This document shows positions 3,001 through 11,890 of a stretch of 32,000 nt of DNA, one piece after another. Source of the DNA: an uncultured Clostridia bacterium (GTDB lineage: Bacteria > Bacillota > Clostridia > TANB77 > CAG-508); contig CALXMH010000005.1 of NCBI GenBank assembly GCA_944389425.1, positions 7,166 through 39,165 of the forward strand. The letters run 5' to 3'. The notes beneath the pieces are model-generated. The model saw only the letters and a list, made by a program, of their open reading frames with translations, had not been told where the DNA came from and did no database searches. The position numbers were made by a program, and so were the translations under genes. The first letter of the stretch is position 1. Each line of letters starts with the position of its first letter.

Positions 3001-3709
3001 AGAAGCTAGAATTGATAGTATAGCACAAAGCTGGGCTGTTATTTCTGGCGCAGGAGAAGAAAATAAACAAAAAATTGCAATGGAAGAGGTAGAAAATCAA
3101 TTAATAGATGAAGAAAATTCTATTATTAAATTATTAGATCCACCTTTTGAAAAAGGTGATATAAATCCAGGGTATATTAAGTCTTATCTGCCAGGTGTAA
3201 GAGAAAATGGTGGACAATACACACATGCTGCAATATGGGTAGTTTGGGCTATGACTTTATTAAAACATGGAGATAAGGCAATTAAATACTATAAATATTT
3301 AACACCAATTGAACATTCTAGAACAAGAGAAATTGCTAACAAGTATAAAGTAGAACCATATGTTATTGTAGCAGATATGTATGGAACAGCAAATTTAATA
3401 GGTAGAGGTGGATGGACTTGGTATACAGGTTCTAGTTCATGGTATTTTAAAGTTGGAGTAGAAGAAATACTAGGACTTAAAGTTGAAAATGGTATGTTAA
3501 GTATTAATCCATGCATTGATTCTACTTGGAAAGAATATATGGTTAAATACAAATTTAAAAGTACTGTTTATAATATAAAAGTAAGAAATCCAAACAATAA
3601 GCAAACTGGAATTAGTTCATTCAAGCTAAATGGACAGGAGATAGAAAGCAAACAAATTAAGCTTATAGATGATGGAAGAATAAATGAGATTGAGGTTGTG
3701 ATGTTATAA
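2..3709 (+). CDS. GH94-family glycoside phosphorylase / cyclic beta-1,2-glucan synthase-like protein; C-terminal ~1235 aa, 5' end lies outside the window
   Basis: The frame of ORF 101..3709 stays open back to base 2, so M101 is not the true start. Motifs recalled for GH94 (formerly GT36): YGFRDQLQD, GSGDWNDGF, ENGGQYTHAA, NSRLNRLSAWNNNPV. TAA stop at 3707-3709. Confidence 0.8.
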   Translation, partial: YAQGIFFYLKNVRTQKAWNIAKTERISKNEKYEVHFMPDTCKFISKTENLETKLKIVISPDEPVEIRNLQIKNTGKQEEIIEISSVLEPVLSSKQQEYAHPAFNKLFLKSEYLEKTGTILVKRNSRGENSDIYLGVNLYTEDETIGDLEYEIDRAKLLGRGNTKIPQMIENSTPFSRNLGIVPDIELALRRTMKIKPGEKITINLLIAISESKDKIEENILKYKNQEHIERAFEISKIRVEEETRYLGIKGKEIEKYQKILSFILFQNQTKKLYLNKVQNQMYKQSDLWKYGISGDLPIILLKIKDVNDIYVVEDLLKAYEYFRAKNIQIDLVILNEEENIYEKYVKEGIESKIQNKQLAYLQNIKGGIYILNEKEIENKDLLEFKANIIIDAHEGNIDSILKYMEKDYIDSIKNIGELEPTVVGEQIETPGKSFEGEKLKYFNEYGGFSENGREYILRINKNNKLPTTWSHVIANENFGTIVTENMGGFTWSRNSRLNRLSAWNNNPVLDTPSEAIYLKDIKNGKAWSLGALPMPDENDYFVTYGFGFANYEHISNNLLQNINVFVPKEDKVKLNIIKIKNVLPDKRKLKLVYYIKPVLGEDEIKTTGNISLKREGNVLIAQNCYLENVEKNIAFVSSSEYIKSFTGSKKSFIGNGSLENPESLNKVSFDGENSIGQTPCIAMEIEIELEEFESKEIVLMFGEGKDYKEITNYTEKYSKPENAQKELQDVKQFWFDKLNNIQVKTPIESFNIMLNGWAMYQTIACRLWAKSGFYQSGGAYGFRDQLQDTLGAKFIDTNLMKKQILKHARHQFIEGDVEHWWHDESQKGIRTRFSDDLLWLVYVTNEYINFTGDSTILDEEIPYLAGPILEDGTDEHYDTHLQSEINENLYLHCKRAIDKACDFGKNNLPKIGSGDWNDGFSTVGNKGIGESVWLGFFLYNVLDGFIPICNLKEDTEATQKYKKIMNMLKQALNTNAWDGRWYKRAYTDDGKVIGSMQNEEARIDSIAQSWAVISGAGEENKQKIAMEEVENQLIDEENSIIKLLDPPFEKGDINPGYIKSYLPGVRENGGQYTHAAIWVVWAMTLLKHGDKAIKYYKYLTPIEHSRTREIANKYKVEPYVIVADMYGTANLIGRGGWTWYTGSSSWYFKVGVEEILGLKVENGMLSINPCIDSTWKEYMVKYKFKSTVYNIKVRNPNNKQTGISSFKLNGQEIESKQIKLIDDGRINEIEVVML

Positions 3710-3712
3710 GGG

Positions 3713-3741
3713 TGGACAAAATGTATATGATTGTATATAAT
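3713..3741 (+). promoter_or_regulatory. sigmaA-type promoter candidate: TGGACA, 17 nt spacer, TATAAT
   Basis: -35 TGGACA at 3713-3718 and -10 TATAAT at 3736-3741. The same hexamers and the same 17-nt spacing recur in copy 2 (8494..8522) although the spacer sequence differs. Confidence 0.45.
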
Positions 3742-3815
3742 ATATTTGTATAATGATAAGTTTAGAGAAGAGGGATTTACTATATGAATGGAAACGCTGA
3801 AAGCTGCATAGTTGT

Positions 3816-3834
3816 ACACACACACACACACACA
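3816..3834. repeat. Dinucleotide microsatellite A(CA)9
   Basis: Direct read: GTACACACACACACACACACAGG. The paralogous copy has (CA)8. Confidence 0.95.
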
Positions 3835-3884
3835 GGTAATTTATTAGAAAAAATAAACAGGAGAAATATATAGATTATATAAGG

Positions 3885-3925
3885 CATATGAACTTAGCTT
3901 GGTAGCTAGGTTTATGTGTCTTTTT
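3885..3925 (+). terminator. Intrinsic terminator inside element copy 1
   Basis: CATATGAACTTAGCT / AGCTAGGTTTATGTG form a 15-bp stem (including G-U pairs) with loop TGGT, followed by TCTTTTT. It also serves as the only terminator downstream of the GH94 gene. Confidence 0.65.
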
Positions 3926-3969
3926 GTGTTGAACTACGTGTGATTTTGTGAGTGGTTTTAAATATAGCC

Positions 3970-4156
3970 GCCGAGATAGGGCGTGGATTAAAATTTATTG
4001 CTCTCCTCGGCACGCCTGCGTGGTCTACAAACTCTAATAGAACATCAAACGAGCCTCTCGAAAGAACGCGCCCTCATTTAATGTTAATAAGAGTTTGTAC
4101 GACCACTCCGGCTACATTCGTCGCTCCATAAATTTTAATCCACGCCCTATCTCGGC
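3970..4156. repeat. Long GC-enriched inverted repeat / hairpin (variable module of element copy 1)
   Basis: Perfect 29-bp arms: 3970-3998 GCCGAGATAGGGCGTGGATTAAAATTTAT and its reverse complement at 4128-4156. An inner second stem pairs TGGTCTACAAACTCT with AGAGTTTGTACGACCA with one bulge. Much more GC-rich than the surroundings. Confidence 0.9.
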
Positions 4157-4296
4157 TCCTCTACAAAATAAAATTATTCATTATTAATTATTCACTATTC
4201 ATTAAATTTACAAAGTATCCGTATAGGGTTAGGAGTTTTTGAGGATAATATGATAAGATAGAAATATAAAGACAAAACGAAAGAGGTATGAGATAC

Positions 4297-5385
4297 ATGT
4301 TACAGAGAAAAAATGGAATAACATTAATAGCTTTAATAATAACAATAATAGTACTGTTAATATTAGCGGGAGTAGCGTTAGCTACTTTGACAGGTCAAGG
4401 CAATATAATAGGAAATGCAGAAAATGCAGTTGATAAGTATAATGAAGATGTAAAAAAAGAAGGATATATTTTAAATGAAATTGATAAATATTTAAATGAA
4501 TTACCAAAAGTATATCTTATTAATGAAGAGGCTGAAATCATAAATAAGGGAGATAGTATTAATGTTTCTTCTTATTTTAGAATTGAAGGTAGTGGAAATA
4601 TAACTGCTAAATATATTAATTTAAATGATAATAGTGAAATAATAGATACTTCTATGTTAGAAATGGGAACTTATACAATAAGATGTATAGCTACTAAAAA
4701 TTCAATTCATACTAGTTATGCAGATAAAGTTATAAATGTAGCAATTCCACTTGCAGATGTAGTGGAATTAGGAGATTATGTTGAATATGATGCAGGTGAT
4801 AAAGTTGTTACAATTACAACATCTGAAAGCGGATTATATTCACCAGACCAAACTTTTAACATTGCTGATTATAAAAATGGCTGGCAAGTACTACAAAATC
4901 AAGATAATATAATAAATTTAATATCTGCTGATTCTGTGAGTGACTTAATGATTTATAGTTTATCTGGTTGGCAAAATTATATAAATACTATAAATAAATT
5001 ATCAGCAGGATATGTAAATGAAGATTATGCTACACAAGGGAAAAGTATAGGAAATGCACTTGGGACTTTTGAAGAAGATATTAATTATATGAAGCAAGCT
5101 GGTGTAAATAATATTGGAAAGTTTTATTATTTAGCTTCAAACTATTATGTTCCAGATGGTGATGGATACTATTACTATTATATTAGGATTATAGAAGAAG
5201 ATGGAGAAAATAGATACTATACAGCTGGAAATACTGCAAGCTTGAATAATTTACCATATTCATCATGGAAAGATAGATCTTGGATTGTAACAAATGGTGT
5301 TAGACCAGTAATTACTTTAAAAGAAGGAATAAGAACAATCGGAGGAAATGGAGAGAAAGATACTCCGTGGATTTTAATTAAATAA
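4297..5385 (+). CDS. Prepilin-type (class III signal peptide-like) N-terminal domain protein with a large variable C-terminal domain
   Basis: N-terminus is MLQRKNG/ITLIALIITIIVLLILAGVALATL: a short basic leader ending in Gly, then a hydrophobic helix as in type IV pilins/pseudopilins, but with Ala instead of Glu at +5. The ATG at 4297 is about 10 nt from SD AAGAGG; the ORF-track ATG at 4288 is too close to it. TAA stop. Confidence 0.7.
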   Translation: MLQRKNGITLIALIITIIVLLILAGVALATLTGQGNIIGNAENAVDKYNEDVKKEGYILNEIDKYLNELPKVYLINEEAEIINKGDSINVSSYFRIEGSGNITAKYINLNDNSEIIDTSMLEMGTYTIRCIATKNSIHTSYADKVINVAIPLADVVELGDYVEYDAGDKVVTITTSESGLYSPDQTFNIADYKNGWQVLQNQDNIINLISADSVSDLMIYSLSGWQNYINTINKLSAGYVNEDYATQGKSIGNALGTFEEDINYMKQAGVNNIGKFYYLASNYYVPDGDGYYYYYIRIIEEDGENRYYTAGNTASLNNLPYSSWKDRSWIVTNGVRPVITLKEGIRTIGGNGEKDTPWILIK

Positions 5386-5402
5386 TGTAACAAAAATGTA
5401 AT

Positions 5403-5440
5403 AAAACATATTTCCTTAGAGGGGAATATGTTTTATTGTT
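5403..5440 (+). terminator. Intrinsic terminator after the pilin-like gene
   Basis: AAAACATATTTCC / GGAATATGTTTT stem with one bulge, followed by a T-rich run. Confidence 0.7.
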
Positions 5441-5545
5441 TTGACTAAAAGACTTTTTGTAATTTAATGTAAAAACAAAATGGCAAAACGATAAAAATGT
5501 ATTTAAATGGCTAAATTTTGGACATGGAGACATAAAAGGTGGCAT

Positions 5546-5574
5546 TTGACATTACTTTTTTTGAGATATAGAAT
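5546..5574 (+). promoter_or_regulatory. sigmaA-type promoter candidate for nrdDG: TTGACA, 17 nt, TAGAAT
   Basis: -35 TTGACA at 5546-5551 and -10 TAGAAT at 5569-5574, about 90 nt upstream of the nrdD ATG. Confidence 0.5.
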
Positions 5575-5663
5575 TAGAAAAGTTGATACAAATGATGCGA
5601 AATTCCTAGTGCTAAATGGGGAATTATAAAGTTTAACAAAATTTTATTTTTGGGGGTAATATT

Positions 5664-7961
5664 ATGCAGGTTATTAAAAGAGATGGAAGAGTAGCAGATT
5701 TTAATTTGGAGAGAATTATTAAAGCTATTACACTTGCTATGTCGCAAACACCAGGTGGAATAGATATTGATTTGGCAAATAAAGTTGCAAGTCAAGTTGA
5801 AAAGAGCTTGGAAGGCAAGATGCAAGCTAGTGTTTATGAAATTCAGGATTTAGTAGAGAAAAAGCTTATGGCATCTTCTAGAAAAGATGTTGCACAAAGT
5901 TATATTACCTATAGATATAATAGAGATGTTGCAAGAAAGTCTAAAACAAAAGAGGTCTTCTTAGATATTATAGGTGCTAAGGCAAATGATATTACAAGAG
6001 AAAATGCAAATATGAATGCAGATACACCTGCCGGAATGATGATGAAATTTGCAAGTGAGACTACAAAACCTTTTGTTGACGATTTTCTTTTATCACAAGA
6101 AGCAAGACAAGCTATAAAAGATGGCTTTATACATGTTCATGATAAAGATTATTATCCAACTAAGAGCTTAACATGTTTGCAACATCCATTAGATAAAATA
6201 TTAGAAAATGGATTTAAAGCAGGTCATGGGTCTTCAAGACCAGCTAAAAGAATTGAAACCGCAAGTATTTTAGGATGCATTTCTATGGAAACAGTACAAA
6301 ACGAAATGCATGGAGGACAAGCTATACCGGCTTTTGATTTTTATCTAGCACCATATGTTAGAAAAACATATATTGAAGAAGTAAAGAAAATAGAACAATT
6401 ACTAGATAAAGATTTATCTAAATTGTATGATGCTAAAATAAACGATTATATCAAAAAAGATTTAAAAGGCTTAAAAGATGAACAAAGGGATATGCAAGCG
6501 GCTATAAATTCAACAGTTGATAGAGTACATCAATCAATGGAAGCATTTATTCATAATATGAATACAATACATTCAAGAGGTGGAAATCAAGTTGTATTTA
6601 GTTCAATAAATTATGGAACAGATACATCAGCAGAAGGTAGATGTATTATAAGAGAGATATTACTTTCAACAGAAAGAGGAGTAGGAAATAACGAAACGCC
6701 AATATTCCCAATTCAAATTTGGAAGAAAAAACGTGGAGTTAATTATTTACCAGAAGATAAAAATTACGACTTATATAAATTGTCTTGCAAAGTTGCAGCA
6801 AAAAGATTTTTCCCAAATTATATAAATCTAGATGCAACATTTAATAGACATCCAAAATGGGATGAGAAAGACCCAAAAAGATATATTTATGAATGTGCAA
6901 CAATGGGATGTAGAACAAGAGTATTTAAAGATAGACATGGAGAAGATACATCAGTAGGAAGAGGAAATTTATCTTTTACAACAATGAATTTACCAGGATT
7001 GGCAATAGAAGCTGCATTAGAGGCACAAGAAAAAACAGGTGTAAAATTCGAACTAGGTAGAGGCTCAGAAACTAATATGACAGCAACTTACAAAAAGACT
7101 GTTAAGAAGATTTTTATGAATAAACTAGAAGAATACGCAGGAATAGTGGCAAGACAATTGTATGATAGATATAAATTTCAATGTACAGCATTAGCAAAAC
7201 AATTTCCATTATTAATGTCTGGTTTATGGGAAGATAGCGAAAAGTTAAAACCAAATGATGAAGTAGAACCAGTAATAAAACATGGAACACTTGGAGTTGG
7301 ATTTATTGGACTTGCAGAGGCATTAACAGTGCTTACAGGAAAACATCATGGAGAATCAGAAGAGTCTCAAAAATTAGGATTAGAAATAATAGGAGAGTTA
7401 CACGAATTAGTAGATGGTTTTGCTGAAAGATATGATCTTAATTATTCAGTTTTAGCTACACCAGCAGAAGGACTTTCAGGAAGGTTTACTAAAATAGATA
7501 AAAGAAAGTATGGAATTATTTTAGGAGTAACAGATAGGGAGTATTATACAAATAGTAATCATGTTCCTGTATGGTATAAATGCACCGCAGAGCAAAAAGC
7601 AAGAATAGAAGCACCATACCATGCTTTAACAGAAGGGGGACATATTTTCTACATAGAGTTAGATGGAGATGCAACACATAATCCAGATACAATAGAAGCA
7701 GTTGTTGATTTAATGGATAAATATAACATGGGCTATGGAAGTGTAAATCATACAAGAAGCAGATGTATGTCATGTGGATTTGAAAATGCAGATGCTAATT
7801 TAACAAAGTGTCCAGTTTGTGGCAGTGAAGATATAGATACAATTCAAAGAATTACAGGATATTTAGTAGGTACTACTTCTCGTTGGAATAGTGCAAAATT
7901 ATCTGAACTTAAAGATAGAGTTACACATATTGGTGGTAATGATGAAATAAAAGGAGCATAA
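5664..7961 (+). CDS. nrdD: Anaerobic ribonucleoside-triphosphate reductase (class III RNR)
   Basis: N-terminal ATP-cone (VIKRDGRVADFNLERI), C-terminal Zn ribbon CMSCG...CPVCG, and glycyl-radical motif RITGYLVG. SD GGGGG upstream. Followed by the activase gene. Confidence 0.95.
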   Translation: MQVIKRDGRVADFNLERIIKAITLAMSQTPGGIDIDLANKVASQVEKSLEGKMQASVYEIQDLVEKKLMASSRKDVAQSYITYRYNRDVARKSKTKEVFLDIIGAKANDITRENANMNADTPAGMMMKFASETTKPFVDDFLLSQEARQAIKDGFIHVHDKDYYPTKSLTCLQHPLDKILENGFKAGHGSSRPAKRIETASILGCISMETVQNEMHGGQAIPAFDFYLAPYVRKTYIEEVKKIEQLLDKDLSKLYDAKINDYIKKDLKGLKDEQRDMQAAINSTVDRVHQSMEAFIHNMNTIHSRGGNQVVFSSINYGTDTSAEGRCIIREILLSTERGVGNNETPIFPIQIWKKKRGVNYLPEDKNYDLYKLSCKVAAKRFFPNYINLDATFNRHPKWDEKDPKRYIYECATMGCRTRVFKDRHGEDTSVGRGNLSFTTMNLPGLAIEAALEAQEKTGVKFELGRGSETNMTATYKKTVKKIFMNKLEEYAGIVARQLYDRYKFQCTALAKQFPLLMSGLWEDSEKLKPNDEVEPVIKHGTLGVGFIGLAEALTVLTGKHHGESEESQKLGLEIIGELHELVDGFAERYDLNYSVLATPAEGLSGRFTKIDKRKYGIILGVTDREYYTNSNHVPVWYKCTAEQKARIEAPYHALTEGGHIFYIELDGDATHNPDTIEAVVDLMDKYNMGYGSVNHTRSRCMSCGFENADANLTKCPVCGSEDIDTIQRITGYLVGTTSRWNSAKLSELKDRVTHIGGNDEIKGA

Positions 7962-7974
7962 GGGGGCTTTTATT

Positions 7975-8478
7975 ATGAATATGGCAGGATTTTATGACGA
8001 AAGTATATCAAATGGACTTGGATGGAGAGCAGTGCTATTTGTAAGCGGATGTCCACATCATTGCCCAGGATGCCATAATAAAATAGCACAAGATTATAAT
8101 TATGGTACTAAATTTAACAAAGAAGAAATTGTAAATAGGATAATGGATAATTCTATTTTAAAGGGCGTGACTATAAGTGGAGGAGAGCCTCTTTGCAAAG
8201 AGAATATACCAGAGGTTTTAGATTTTATAAAAGAGATTAAAGAAAAAAGACCAGAATTTAATATTTGGTGTTATACTGGGTATACGTTAGAGCAGCTGGA
8301 AGAGAGGAAAGATAAAATAACAGATGAATGTTTAAATGAGATTGATGTTTTAGTAGACGGAAGATTTGTGGAGTCTAGAAAGGATCCTACATTGAAGTTT
8401 AGGGGGTCATCTAATCAGAGAATAATAGATATTCATAAGTCATTAATGCAAAAGCAGGTTGTTCAGTTGGCTGTTTAA
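7975..8478 (+). CDS. nrdG: Anaerobic RNR activating protein (radical SAM)
   Basis: The CPHHCPGCHN cluster matches the CxxxCxxC radical-SAM motif. Size is about 167 aa and it lies immediately downstream of nrdD. Confidence 0.9.
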   Translation: MNMAGFYDESISNGLGWRAVLFVSGCPHHCPGCHNKIAQDYNYGTKFNKEEIVNRIMDNSILKGVTISGGEPLCKENIPEVLDFIKEIKEKRPEFNIWCYTGYTLEQLEERKDKITDECLNEIDVLVDGRFVESRKDPTLKFRGSSNQRIIDIHKSLMQKQVVQLAV

Positions 8479-8493
8479 ATTTTGGAAAAAGTA

Positions 8494-8522
8494 TGGACAA
8501 GAGGATTTGTTTTGTATATAAT
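8494..8522 (+). promoter_or_regulatory. sigmaA-type promoter candidate: TGGACA, 17 nt, TATAAT (copy 2)
   Basis: -35 at 8494-8499 and -10 at 8517-8522. Hexamers and spacing are conserved with copy 1. Confidence 0.45.
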
Positions 8523-8592
8523 GTTTGAAGGAGATAGAAAAGAAACGAGGTTGAATGCAAATGAGGATAAACGCTGCAAGCCGCATGGTTGT

Positions 8593-8609
8593 ACACACAC
8601 ACACACACA
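8593..8609. repeat. Dinucleotide microsatellite A(CA)8
   Basis: Direct read. One CA unit shorter than copy 1. Confidence 0.95.
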
Positions 8610-8658
8610 GGTAGTTTGTTAGAGAAGTTAAATAGAAGGAATATATAGATTTATTAGA

Positions 8659-8705
8659 CATATGAACTTAGTTATTGTTGGATAGCTAGGTTTATGTGTC
8701 TTTTT
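8659..8705 (+). terminator. Intrinsic terminator inside element copy 2
   Basis: Same stem arms as copy 1 (CATATGAACTTAGTT / AGCTAGGTTTATGTG) with a larger 10-nt loop, then TCTTTTT. It is the only terminator downstream of nrdG. Confidence 0.65.
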
Positions 8706-8745
8706 GTTTTGCTTGTGAATATGTGTGGCGGTTTTAAAGGTAGCC

Positions 8746-8855
8746 GCCCTTAGAGTTCATATATATTATTTCTTGCCTCACATGGCTTCGATAGTGGGAG
8801 CGTACGACGTATAACTTCCTCGGACTTCAAAATAATATATATGAACTCTAAGGGC
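8746..8855. repeat. Inverted repeat / hairpin (variable module of element copy 2)
   Basis: Perfect 26-bp arms: 8746-8771 GCCCTTAGAGTTCATATATATTATTT and its reverse complement at 8830-8855. The 58-nt interior is GC-enriched. Confidence 0.9.
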
Positions 8856-9170
8856 TACTCTACTACTTAAAATTATTCACTATTAATTATTCATTAATTT
8901 GAATAAGTATCCGTATAGGGTTAGTAGTTTTTGGAGATAATATGATAAGATAATAAAAAACAAATGAAAGAGGGCAAGAAAAAGTGAAAGAAAAGAAATT
9001 AATGCTATGAGCGGCAATGAATACAGATGCAAAAAATCCGCCCAAAATTGATGAAAGCTGGAAGAAAAGACAAAACTTCCAGCTTTTGTCATATAAAATG
9101 CATAACAAAAATGTGATGTGGCATGTAAAGCTCGAAAAGTATAGAATCAAGTAGAGTTCTTGAATAGAAC

Positions 9171-9199
9171 TTGAAAAAGATGGAAAAGCATGATATAAT
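9171..9199 (+). promoter_or_regulatory. Strong sigmaA-type promoter candidate with extended -10: TTGAAA, 17 nt, TGaTATAAT
   Basis: -35 at 9171-9176, TG at 9191-9192, -10 at 9194-9199. About 90 nt upstream of ORF 9292. Confidence 0.55.
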
Positions 9200-9291
9200 T
9201 TTATACATAGTAGCTATATAAAAAGCCTTGGAAAATTTTTGAGGGCTGCAAGTGAATTGCTGCTTTGGGTGAATGACAGGAGGAATTTAAA

Positions 9292-10559: not shown

Positions 10560-10587
10560 AAAGGTGTAATTGTATACACCTTTTTTA
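10559..10587. terminator. Bidirectional intrinsic terminator between convergent rsmA and the HD-GYP gene
   Basis: AAAAGGTGTA / TACACCTTTT stem flanked by an A-run and a T-run. Confidence 0.7.
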
Positions 10588-11527
10588 CATCCAATCATCA
10601 ATTTTAATTTTTCTTATTTTTTGAATTTCTGATATTAATTTTTCTATATGCTCTTTTCTAACTATATAAGCATTTTTATATTCTTCAATTATTTGCTTAT
10701 AATTTTCAAGTGTTTCACCAGGTTGAAGAGTATATTCTATAAGTTCTTTAAAATCTTCTTTATCACGAGATTTTGTTGCGCTATGGTAGCCATCTATATA
10801 CTCATCAAGTTTTTCTAATCTTTTTATTTGGTTTTCTATGTGCTTAATGTAGCCTTCTACACAAGATATTTCATAATTTATATCATCTTCCACAACTTCA
10901 AATAAGGAGTGAACAATTTGTGGATTTATTTGACTGTATTTAGGATTTTTTGCATTTGTTCTACCTGTTTTATAAGCAGGGATTGTTTTGTCTGCAATTA
11001 TTTTTAATGTATCTGATATGTCTATGTGAGTTTTATATTGTCTTTTGCTAACAATTGCATCATATTCATCTGCAACTCTTATTATTTGTCCTTCTATTGG
11101 TAAATCTTCTTTTACTACTCCATTTGGATATCCGAGAACCATCTAATCCTTCATGGTGATATAGGGGACCATTTGCATATGGCCTTAATTTTAAGTCGTC
11201 CATGCACATTTTATAGCCAATTGTTGTATGTGTTTTCATTTTTTCATATTCTTCATCTGTAAGCTTACCATTTTTTTGTAATATTTCTGGTGGAATAAAC
11301 ATTTTGCCAATATCGTGTAAATATGCACACATTGTACAATAAATTGTAAATTTTTTATTTAATCTTAAATTTTTACAAATTTTACTAGTCATATTTGCCA
11401 CGTTTTCAGAGTGCTTTAATGTAAATACATCCAAATGAGAAAGCATATTTAACTGGTATCGCATGCTTTCATTTAGATTGTAAGATTTTAAATTGGTTTT
11501 ATCATAAAAATCAAATTCTTTATACAT
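10585..11527 (-). pseudogene. HD-GYP domain phosphodiesterase, split into two ORFs by a +1 frame break exactly at an in-frame CGG (11134..11132)
   Basis: The upstream ORF carries HD motifs (YLHDIGK, HHEGLDGS). The downstream ORF begins ..GYPNGVVKEDLPIEGQIIRVADEYDAIVSKRQYK. Skipping one C joins them into HHEGLDGSGYPNG. The likely start is the ATG at 11527 (MYKEF), which has GGAG 6 nt upstream. Confidence 0.8.
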
Positions 11528-11640
11528 AATCGTCTCCATTCATATTATGGATATATTTTATAACTTTTATTAAAGTTTTGTCAACATTTAGTTAGGAGTC
11601 TTTTTTTAATTTGCTATTTTAATTATTTTCTTATAAATAC

Positions 11641-11740: not shown

Positions 11741-11890
11741 ATGTTATTAGAACAAGTTTATTTAGCATTTATTTACATACTTCTTGTAGAACTTGCAATA
11801 GTAACAGTTGTAGCTATTGCCTTATTTGTAGCATTAGTTGTTACAATTAAGAAATTAGACAACAAAAAATACATCTCTGCTGGACGTTAG
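11741..11890 (+). CDS. 49-aa hydrophobic peptide with a basic C-terminal tail; candidate type I toxin or small membrane protein
   Basis: Sequence: MLLEQVYLAFIYILLVELAIVTVVAIALFVALVVTIKKLDNKKYISAGR. SD GAGGAGG lies 9 nt upstream of the ATG at 11741. One predicted TM helix. The stop codon lies inside the terminator stem-loop. Confidence 0.5.
   Translation: MLLEQVYLAFIYILLVELAIVTVVAIALFVALVVTIKKLDNKKYISAGR

Follow-up and report, generated by a model that had tools for sequence, protein, structure and literature searches.

The flagellar switch of C. difficile (PMC5386303) sits downstream of a riboswitch in the flgB leader. Its surface-protein gene is preceded in turn by a promoter, a leader element with a terminator and a segment between inverted repeats. 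The vls inverted repeats of Borrelia are always present and vary in length, location and sequence (PMC11499132). REPINs are inverted pairs of repetitive extragenic palindromic (REP) sequences that carry a spacer and show compensatory changes (PMC3116915). Here we describe two long hairpins in a 32,000-nucleotide (nt) stretch of DNA from an uncultured Clostridia bacterium (contig CALXMH010000005.1, positions 7,166 to 39,165; hereafter the window). Each is set in a copy of a repeated control region, the scaffold, which lies upstream of genes whose products have a pilin-like N-terminus. These hairpins are not explained by any named family. We propose, with a probability that we put at roughly 45%, that they are a scaffold-bound, structured module under selection, probably acting as RNA, and that two old, unrelated classes of this module have been shuffled among paralogues.

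The scaffold is an intergenic repeat of ~500 nt found upstream of multi-copy genes. Its parts follow one another as a promoter (P1), a leader open reading frame (ORF) with (AC)8-9, an intrinsic terminator (T1), a conserved GTTTTAAAnnTAGCC motif, the hairpin, GGCTNCTCTAC, a variable stretch that consists of TTATTCA direct repeats in the window copies, a conserved promoter-like box, a ribosome-binding site (RBS) and the gene. The hairpin is located 30-45 nt past T1 and 60-100 nt ahead of the box and the RBS. Both hairpins of the window are preceded by TAGCC and succeeded by T(C/A)CTCTAC, and their stems are closed by GCC/GGC, the ends reading GCCGAG.../...CTCGGC in copy 1 and GCCCTT.../...AAGGGC in copy 2. 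The identical insertion point given in the preliminary description is thus borne out, as are the perfect arms of 29 base pairs (bp) in copy 1 and of 26 bp around 58 nt in copy 2; the inner stem of copy 1, given as 15 bp behind a 22x22-nt loop, is actually 16 bp with a bulge behind a 21x21-nt loop. The two hairpins are the longest and best inverted repeats in the whole window. Their predicted RNA folds have z-scores of -12.1 (copy 1) and -8.5 (copy 2), and 0/200 shuffled sequences fold as well. The G+C (GC) content, 47.1% in copy 1 (49.6% in the interior) and 40.0% in copy 2 (51.7% in the interior), stands far above that of the window (27.9%) and of the hairpin flanks (24-35%), as had been remarked. 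The foreign origin suggested on that account gained no ground: a blastn comparison of phages and plasmids with both scaffolds gave short AT-rich chance matches or none, and viral sequences matched the type 1 and type 2 cores only by chance, inside unrelated coding regions.

That the two hairpins are unrelated in sequence withstood scrutiny. In both orientations their local alignment scores 14-16, against a shuffle mean of 13-16, which is not above chance. Two 7-mers common to both classes (TCCTCGG and GTACGAC) were considered as a trace of homology and rejected, being not significant and inconsistent with each other in orientation. The scaffold flanks of copies 1 and 2 are 75% identical on the left and 86% on the right.

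A survey of contigs encoding members of the pilin-like family disclosed 18 further scaffold copies, bringing the catalogue to 20, with 14 filled sites from at least 10 samples. The hairpins at these sites fall into two classes. Type 1 (n=3) comprises window copy 1, L005 (1178-1364) and L021 (9669-9858); L005 is the copy 1 locus in another strain, and L021, from a more distant genome, lies at another locus, ahead of scpB. Type 2 (n=11) comprises window copy 2, L002, L007 (cut by the contig end), L008, L010 (three copies within 21 kb), L018 (two), L019 and L020. Orientation is identical in 14/14 copies, every hairpin copy is upstream of a pilin-like gene, and in related contigs totalling about 195 kb no copy was found other than in a scaffold, by a covariance model for type 2 with which blastn agrees. 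A catalogue of cargoes, with a different hairpin at each site, had been envisaged; two classes in one fixed orientation are what the filled sites hold. Likewise, the hairpins can be described as ordinary divergent descendants within each class, but not between classes. At the copy 1 locus and its orthologues (GH94, scaffold, pilin-like gene, nrdD), the hairpin is type 1 in the window and L005 and type 2 in L007, and L006 has none. Hairpin class is independent of right-flank class: type 1 is flanked by TTATTCA/GTATCCGTATAGGG in the window and by AACCGAATAGGG in L021. Within type 2, two arm subtypes track two flank classes.

The hairpins can be taken as real rather than as assembly artefacts, because both classes recur in independent assemblies. 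Judging from an 18-mer of the scaffold, the lineage that carries it is narrow: the 18-mer is present in one of about 185,000 species genomes, an uncultured Clostridium metagenome-assembled genome (loci L001 and L002), and the JGI metagenome set gave no true match, only two chance matches in unrelated GC-rich DNA. Several metagenome contigs end inside or beside a hairpin or scaffold (L007 1-12, L017, L019 at 11765-11812, L022), and at the start of L007 a leftover of Illumina adaptor (TCTTCCGATCT) precedes one half of a type 2 hairpin. Such breaks are expected for a multi-copy palindromic repeat, and these elements are therefore under-represented in public assemblies.

Evidence for a selected fold comes from the way in which the copies differ. 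The type 1 alignment has 68 pairs, with 96.6% of cells paired. Between window copy 1 and L021, 17 pairs are changed on both sides (10/29 in the outer arm, 2 in the inner stem and 5 in the central stem), against 5.8 in shuffles, of which 0/500 reach 17, and 0-6 in slid controls; the sequence of the 21x21 loop and of the central loop is kept. For type 2, a covariance-model alignment gave 7/26 arm pairs changed on both sides and a covariation score of 0.266 against 0.136 in shuffles (0/500 reach it). The type 2 arms occur in at least 10 half-arm haplotypes among 11 copies, the outer-middle arm being hypervariable, whereas the inner arm (ATATATATTATTT) and the interior (TTGCCTCACATGGCTTCG, about 10 variable nt, GCGTACGACGTAYAACTTCCTCGGACTKCA) are conserved. 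Perfect palindromic arms are found in 7/10 complete type 2 copies. The imperfect copies are either recombinant or in decay: L010a matches L010b exactly in its right arm and in the DNA downstream but not in its left arm, and L010c has four arm mismatches and stands ahead of a truncated gene. The idea that sequence is free while structure is fixed therefore survives in part, as the stems change with pairing kept, but there are only two discrete classes, each with conserved loops or interior. No consistent rule linking variable arm positions to the variable interior block of type 2 was seen by eye, and RNAduplex found no consistent pairing site for that block elsewhere in the scaffold. Taken together, helices kept by changes on both sides next to conserved unpaired sequence point to a selected structured nucleic acid, in a comparison of few sequences and of a kind that template switching can mimic.

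Four distinct loci have a scaffold and no hairpin. In L006 the left junction is kept; in L009 it is lost and GGAC of the right arm remains; in L011-16 the T run of T1 is lost as well; and in L001 P1 is joined directly to GGCTACTCTAC. Scaffolds without a hairpin, for which the preliminary description proposed to look, thus exist, but comparison of their ends indicates independent deletions rather than sites that were never occupied, because the end points differ and the last 3-4 nt of the right arm are kept. Separately, L006 lacks the whole of scaffold copy 2 between nrdG and ksgA, a syntenic interval that measures 119 nt there and 814 nt in the window (window 8479-9291, L006 4677-4794). The missing unit comprises leader ORF, T1, hairpin, truncated gene stub and terminator, and its junctions fall in similar TTGGAAAAA(G/C) promoter sequence.

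How might such a hairpin work? The hairpin is probably a lineage-restricted, structured cis-element in two classes, for which acting strand and function are predictions from sequence. The fold would be selected in a single-stranded nucleic acid, most likely RNA, because compensated helices flank a large internal loop whose sequence is conserved; the hairpin centres are too large for a double-stranded cruciform to be likely. The RNA would be made when transcription from P1 reads through T1, so that the hairpin would form part of a long 5' leader. We envisage that it acts in cis, the duplex serving as an RNase III-type processing or stability site, a role that solely its length and perfection (26-29 bp) suggest. 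Alternatively, the hairpin might be a clamp whose conserved, pyrimidine-rich loops are displayed for a partner, either protein or RNA. The shared insertion point would result from homologous exchange among scaffold paralogues at TAGCC and GGCTACTCTA and not from site-specific insertion. The arms may be kept perfect partly by replication template switching, in which one arm is copied from the other; template switching is reported to make and maintain perfect stems in single events (bioRxiv 10.1101/2021.04.15.439925 = PMC8794818). A bolder extension, which we hold to be doubtful, would make the junction a slot for interchangeable modules, of two or perhaps more unrelated classes swapped between the leaders of paralogues in a polymorphic gene family, that together with the slippage-prone (AC)n ORF and T1 forms a combinatorial, phase-variable control region of a new type; or else a structure-specific, sequence-independent signal for cassette exchange, like the vls repeats but in Firmicutes.

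Several observations weigh against a selected leader RNA. If T1 is efficient and the box ahead of the gene is a real promoter, the hairpin may rarely be transcribed. The type 1 fold is better by 13-20 kcal/mol as minus-strand RNA in 3/3 copies, because pairs that are U.G there are C.A on the plus strand, which favours an antisense RNA or single-stranded DNA. The type 2 interior has weak predicted structure (-8.6 kcal/mol) and no double-sided covariation. L005 differs from the window type 1 hairpin by five uncompensated substitutions. The hairpin is dispensable at the four loci that lack it, and the orphan copy 2 retains perfect arms ahead of a truncated gene, which fits maintenance at the DNA level equally well. 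Finally, the sample is small, with three copies of type 1 and eleven of type 2, and several of these are close relatives.

These points lend some weight to other explanations. One treats the hairpin as a palindrome acting at the DNA level, where it would favour recombination or gene conversion between paralogues, with the inverted repeats at the Borrelia vlsE/silent-cassette junction as the model. The family it adjoins has a conserved N-terminus and highly variable C-terminal parts, the scaffolds are mosaic with breakpoints inside the hairpin in 2/3 L010 copies, orphan scaffolds with truncated genes exist (window copy 2, L010c), Rpn-like nuclease genes adjoin scaffolds in L010 and L021, and the constant presence and changing sequence of the vls repeats set a precedent. 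We nevertheless consider this unlikely: cruciform extrusion is improbable with non-palindromic centres of 58-129 nt and 21x21 mismatched loops, a mere hotspot needs neither conserved loops nor compensated inner helices past a large internal loop, and no silent-cassette array is visible in the window. A similarly low probability is given to a palindromic insertion that is selfish or has no function. It would have entered the scaffold long ago, owe its perfect arms to quasi-palindrome template switching and be disappearing slowly through slippage deletions. Its dispensability with differing deletion end points, the uncompensated changes of L005 and the perfect arms of the orphan scaffold are all in keeping with this, and clustered multi-base differences together with matched arm indels fit single template switches as two reports present them (bioRxiv 10.1101/2021.04.15.439925 = PMC8794818; PMC8604942). 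Yet an interior of about 50% GC persists in a 28% GC genome where the flanks are only 75-86% identical, orientation is fixed, and template switching should erase internal loops, although the 21x21 and central loops are conserved between copy 1 and L021. The strand asymmetry of type 1 might also reflect a separate minus-strand small RNA. It would start at the base of the hairpin, near a conserved TAGAGT box (ACTCTA on the opposite strand), and end at T1 read backwards, with GGA/GGAG-rich loops exposed, for example as a protein sponge. The loops of both classes are purine-rich on that strand, a conserved U.G pair there corresponds to plus-strand C.A, and a -10-like TAGAGT or TATAGT stands 3-4 nt from the stem in most copies. 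The asymmetry is, however, driven by only three wobble positions, type 2 is without strand preference (-48.5 against -45.1 kcal/mol), window copy 1 and L002 have TAGAGG in place of the box, which makes a poor -10, a convincing -35 is lacking, and the promoter scan found no minus-strand site in either right flank, so that such an RNA seems distinctly unlikely.

The identical boundaries of two unrelated sequences call to mind a site-specific mobile palindrome that targets TAGCC/GTAG, such as a miniature inverted-repeat transposable element (MITE), a REPIN or an IS200/IS605-type element, the two classes being two families. GTAG is present 5' of the stem on both strands (GTAGCC..., ...CTCTAC), which we take to recall the GTAG of REP sequences, and the type 1 arm presumably resembles the E. 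coli REP consensus (GCCGGATAAGGCGT), a likeness to which we give no weight. The combination of inverted arms, spacer and compensatory changes is that of REPINs, but the termini are here the most variable part and the interior is conserved, the reverse of the REPIN, which has invariant 16-mers at both ends (PMC3116915). The flanks (TAGCC on the left, TNCTCTAC on the right) contain no direct repeat, and with neither target-site duplication nor constant outer arms the arms do not qualify as MITE termini. All 14/14 copies occupy one scaffold position in a single orientation, none lying elsewhere in the 195 kb, which speaks against dispersal of the MITE or REPIN type. The 18-mer of the scaffold is confined to its one species genome and the lineage is narrow, and hairpin-less copies that keep the last 3-4 nt of the right arm suggest deletions and not virgin targets. 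Pfam scans covered the window ORFs 101-26768, with ORFs 26717 to 31803 lying outside the scan, and within this range no Y1 (RAYT) or other transposase was found, nor any RAYT among the called genes of the related loci. We regard a mobile palindrome as highly improbable. The layout would also suit a phase-variation switch that inverts between the arms, these being the recombinase sites, on the model of the C. difficile flagellar system. This can hardly be entertained, given that the interior has the same orientation in 11/11 type 2 and 3/3 type 1 copies from different samples and assemblies, that the type 2 spacer is only 58 bp, that arms with at least 10 half-arm haplotypes in 11 type 2 copies are the opposite of what a recombinase site needs, and that no recombinase gene is nearby.

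The families put forward in the preliminary description (retron msd, attC, guide-carrying RNA and palindromic MITE) each fail at least one testable defining feature, and the absence of reverse transcriptase, integrase and transposase that it reported was reproduced by Pfam over the scanned ORFs. A retron msr-msd has one non-coding RNA locus per system; here the window has two and L010 has three in a span of 21 kb, and no reverse transcriptase is encoded in the scanned window ORFs, the neighbours being GH94, nrdD/nrdG, ksgA and smc. The ends of the hairpins lack the RYYYAAC...GTTRRRY core sites of integron attC, and there is neither integrase nor cassette array. Guide or bridge RNAs (IS110, IS605 omega RNA) are unsupported by any IS110, TnpB or IscB domain in the scanned ORFs. 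The hairpins are not intrinsic terminators: on the plus strand they are followed by UCCUCUAC or UACUCUAC, with no U run, and the terminator scan picks out T1 and passes over the long hairpins. Rfam 15, including 6S, HEARO and riboswitches, gave no match at the gathering threshold in the window and none on the hairpins at E<=10 in 3600-9100.

Coordinates of all features are collected in Table 1.

Table 1. Features of the two scaffold copies, in window coordinates
Feature	Position	Strand	Details
Type 1 hairpin (copy 1)	3970..4156	.	Arms 3970-3998/4128-4156, perfect 29 bp
Type 1 internal loop, copy 1	3999-4019/4107-4127		21x21 nt
Type 1 inner stem, copy 1	4020-4035/4090-4106		16 bp with one-base bulge
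Type 1 central stem-loop, copy 1	4036-4089		Partly paired
Type 2 hairpin (copy 2)	8746..8855	.	Arms 8746-8771/8830-8855, perfect 26 bp
Type 2 interior, copy 2	8772-8829		58 nt
Promoter P1, copy 1	3713..3741	+	TGGACA-17-TATAAT; 11/12 consensus positions; conserved in all full scaffolds
Leader ORF, copy 1 (MNGNAESCIVVHTHTHTGNLLEKINRRNI, then stop)	3784..3873	+	(AC)9 at 3816-3833; RBS-like AGAGGG upstream; stop 12 nt before T1
Intrinsic terminator T1, copy 1	3881..3931	+	19-bp stem and T run; conserved in other scaffolds with stem changes
Left junction GGTTTTAAATATAGCC, copy 1	3953..3969	+	Conserved as G(T)TTTAAAnnTAGCC in filled copies
Right junction GGCTCCTCTAC, copy 1	4154..4164	+	GGC common to arm; kept in hairpin-less L001, L009
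TTATTCA direct repeats, class A right flank	4173..4204	+	Repeat family D3
Conserved box AAGTATCCGTATAGGGTTAG..., copy 1	4213..4259	+	Ends in extended -10-like TGATAAGAT (P2-like)
Gene with pilin-like hydrophobic N-terminus, copy 1	4288..5385	+	365 residues
Promoter P1, copy 2	8494..8522	+	Promoter scan
Leader ORF, copy 2 (MQMRINAASRMVVHTHTHR, then stop)	8555..8614	+	(AC)8 at 8593-8608; early stop 45 nt before T1
Terminator T1, copy 2	8656..8710	+	Terminator scan
Conserved box and P2-like -10, copy 2	8905..8951	+	
Pilin-like gene remnant, copy 2	8984..9010	+	8 codons, VKEKKLML, then stop; copy 2 is an orphan scaffold
Terminator-like hairpin closing copy 2 unit	9054..9090	+	AAAGCTGGAAG...CTTCCAGCTTTTGT

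The genes that follow the scaffold share the conserved N-terminus (KNGITLIALIITIIVLLILAGVALATL...) and have very diverse C-terminal parts. The product of the copy 1 gene has >2000 homologues in the protein collection, and we take the family to be large and variable in its C-terminal parts because these match only the N-terminal ~65 residues. Neither the copy 1 gene nor the pilin-like N-terminus has a match in Pfam or NCBIfam; the label 'pilin-like' is our own reading of KNGITLIALIITIIVLLILAGVALATL. PT-HINT/intein-type domains (PF07591, PF14890) are present in some family members (proteins P0001-P0120) and suggest that these proteins are secreted and polymorphic. The KEKKL opening of the copy 2 remnant, in DNA (R)TGAAAGAAAAGAAATTAA, matches the start of the gene beside L010c (MKEKKL), and the L001 and L002 genes open with a related QEKKL.

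Every scaffold has a small, RBS-preceded leader ORF in which (AC)n is read as His-Thr repeats (compared in the window copies, L002, L005, L006, L008-L011 and L018-L021). With (AC)8 it reads M..VHTHTH(R/S/I/M) up to a conserved stop 43-51 nt before T1 (28-36 nt in L006 and L021), and with (AC)9 (window copy 1, L018a) or (AC)8+AT (L002) the frame shifts and runs on to a far stop, also conserved (AATATATAG/TAA), which leaves only 11-12 nt ahead of the T1 stem. The same locus has (AC)9 in the window and (AC)8 in L005. By its sequence, the combination of leader ORF and T1 looks like a slipped-strand, translation-coupled attenuator, in which the 5' arm of T1 would be covered by a ribosome that has arrived at the far stop. 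A new slippage-controlled attenuator may adjoin the hairpin. On our reading the P2-like box is a putative promoter. TTATTCA direct repeats stand between hairpin and box (4173-4204 and 8869-8898) at a spacing of about 10-14 nt, in the class A right flank only, and may be bound by an activator of the response-regulator type. Just upstream of P1 another repeated element, GGGGACGTTTCnnAATGGGGTAAAATACCCCAnTGGGGACACATCT, forms a small hairpin in L001 (1890-1940), L006 (61-108), L011 (~3610-3670), L015 and L016 and is not present in the window scaffold copies. The Rpn-like genes (PDDEXK_2 nuclease/'transposase', HTH_Rpn_C) adjoin scaffolds at L010 8643-9494 and 13907-14770 and at L021 9121-9399, and none stands beside the window copies. 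The window itself is low-GC chromosomal DNA with ordinary housekeeping genes (GH94 glycosyl hydrolase, nrdD/nrdG, ksgA, smc, comEC, Clp ATPase). On its minus strand two overlapping ORFs (10585-11142 and 11066-11539) each hold part of an HD-domain (HD_5) protein, as in syntenic L006 (6086-7028); this could be a conserved frameshift or a two-part gene.

What would a scaffold-bound, selected hairpin imply? If the fold is functional, it would be an undescribed two-class structured element of uncultured gut Clostridia, linked to a large protein family, at the surface or secreted, that has a pilin-like N-terminus. The locus also offers a natural case for the question of whether long perfect stems are kept by selection or by template-switch copying, and with two unrelated modules at one site a direct test is possible.

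How the locus relates to described systems depends on which of its features are compared. With leader cis-elements such as attenuators, riboswitch platforms and RNase III-processed hairpins, it shares a long non-coding region between a promoter/terminator unit and an RBS, hairpins that are GC-rich in an AT-rich genome, compensated helices and conserved loops. It differs from them in having no Rfam family, in perfect arms of 26-29 bp that are far longer than usual regulatory stems, in two unrelated classes interchangeable at one site and dispensable in some paralogues, and in transcription that is here a prediction. In shape only, type 1 recalls 6S RNA, being a rod of ~187-190 nt with a large internal loop between two helices, but it has no Rfam 6S match at E<=10, is closed by a perfect 29-bp stem and is multi-copy and scaffold-bound. 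From the C. difficile flgB leader (PMC5386303), whose parts come in the same order, the locus is set apart by the lack of inversion in 14 copies, a spacer down to 58 bp, hypervariable arms and no linked recombinase. REPINs likewise have inverted arms with a spacer, about 100-190 nt in all, a predicted single-stranded DNA or RNA hairpin, compensatory changes and GTAG by the stem. Their ends are invariant, and they occur in hundreds of copies through extragenic space with a RAYT gene (PMC3116915), whereas here the ends vary, a single scaffold position is occupied and no RAYT is found in the scanned window ORFs. At the Borrelia vlsE junction a long inverted repeat likewise lies beside the 5' end of a variable surface gene, conserved in presence and not in sequence (PMC11499132). 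The vls repeats shift in position and partly mirror gene 5' ends, in contrast to the exact position, conserved loops and large non-palindromic centres seen here, where no silent-cassette array is visible. By analogy, then, the vlsE junction inverted repeat is the nearest counterpart at the DNA level, REPINs the nearest mobile counterpart in shape and the C. difficile flgB leader the nearest in layout.

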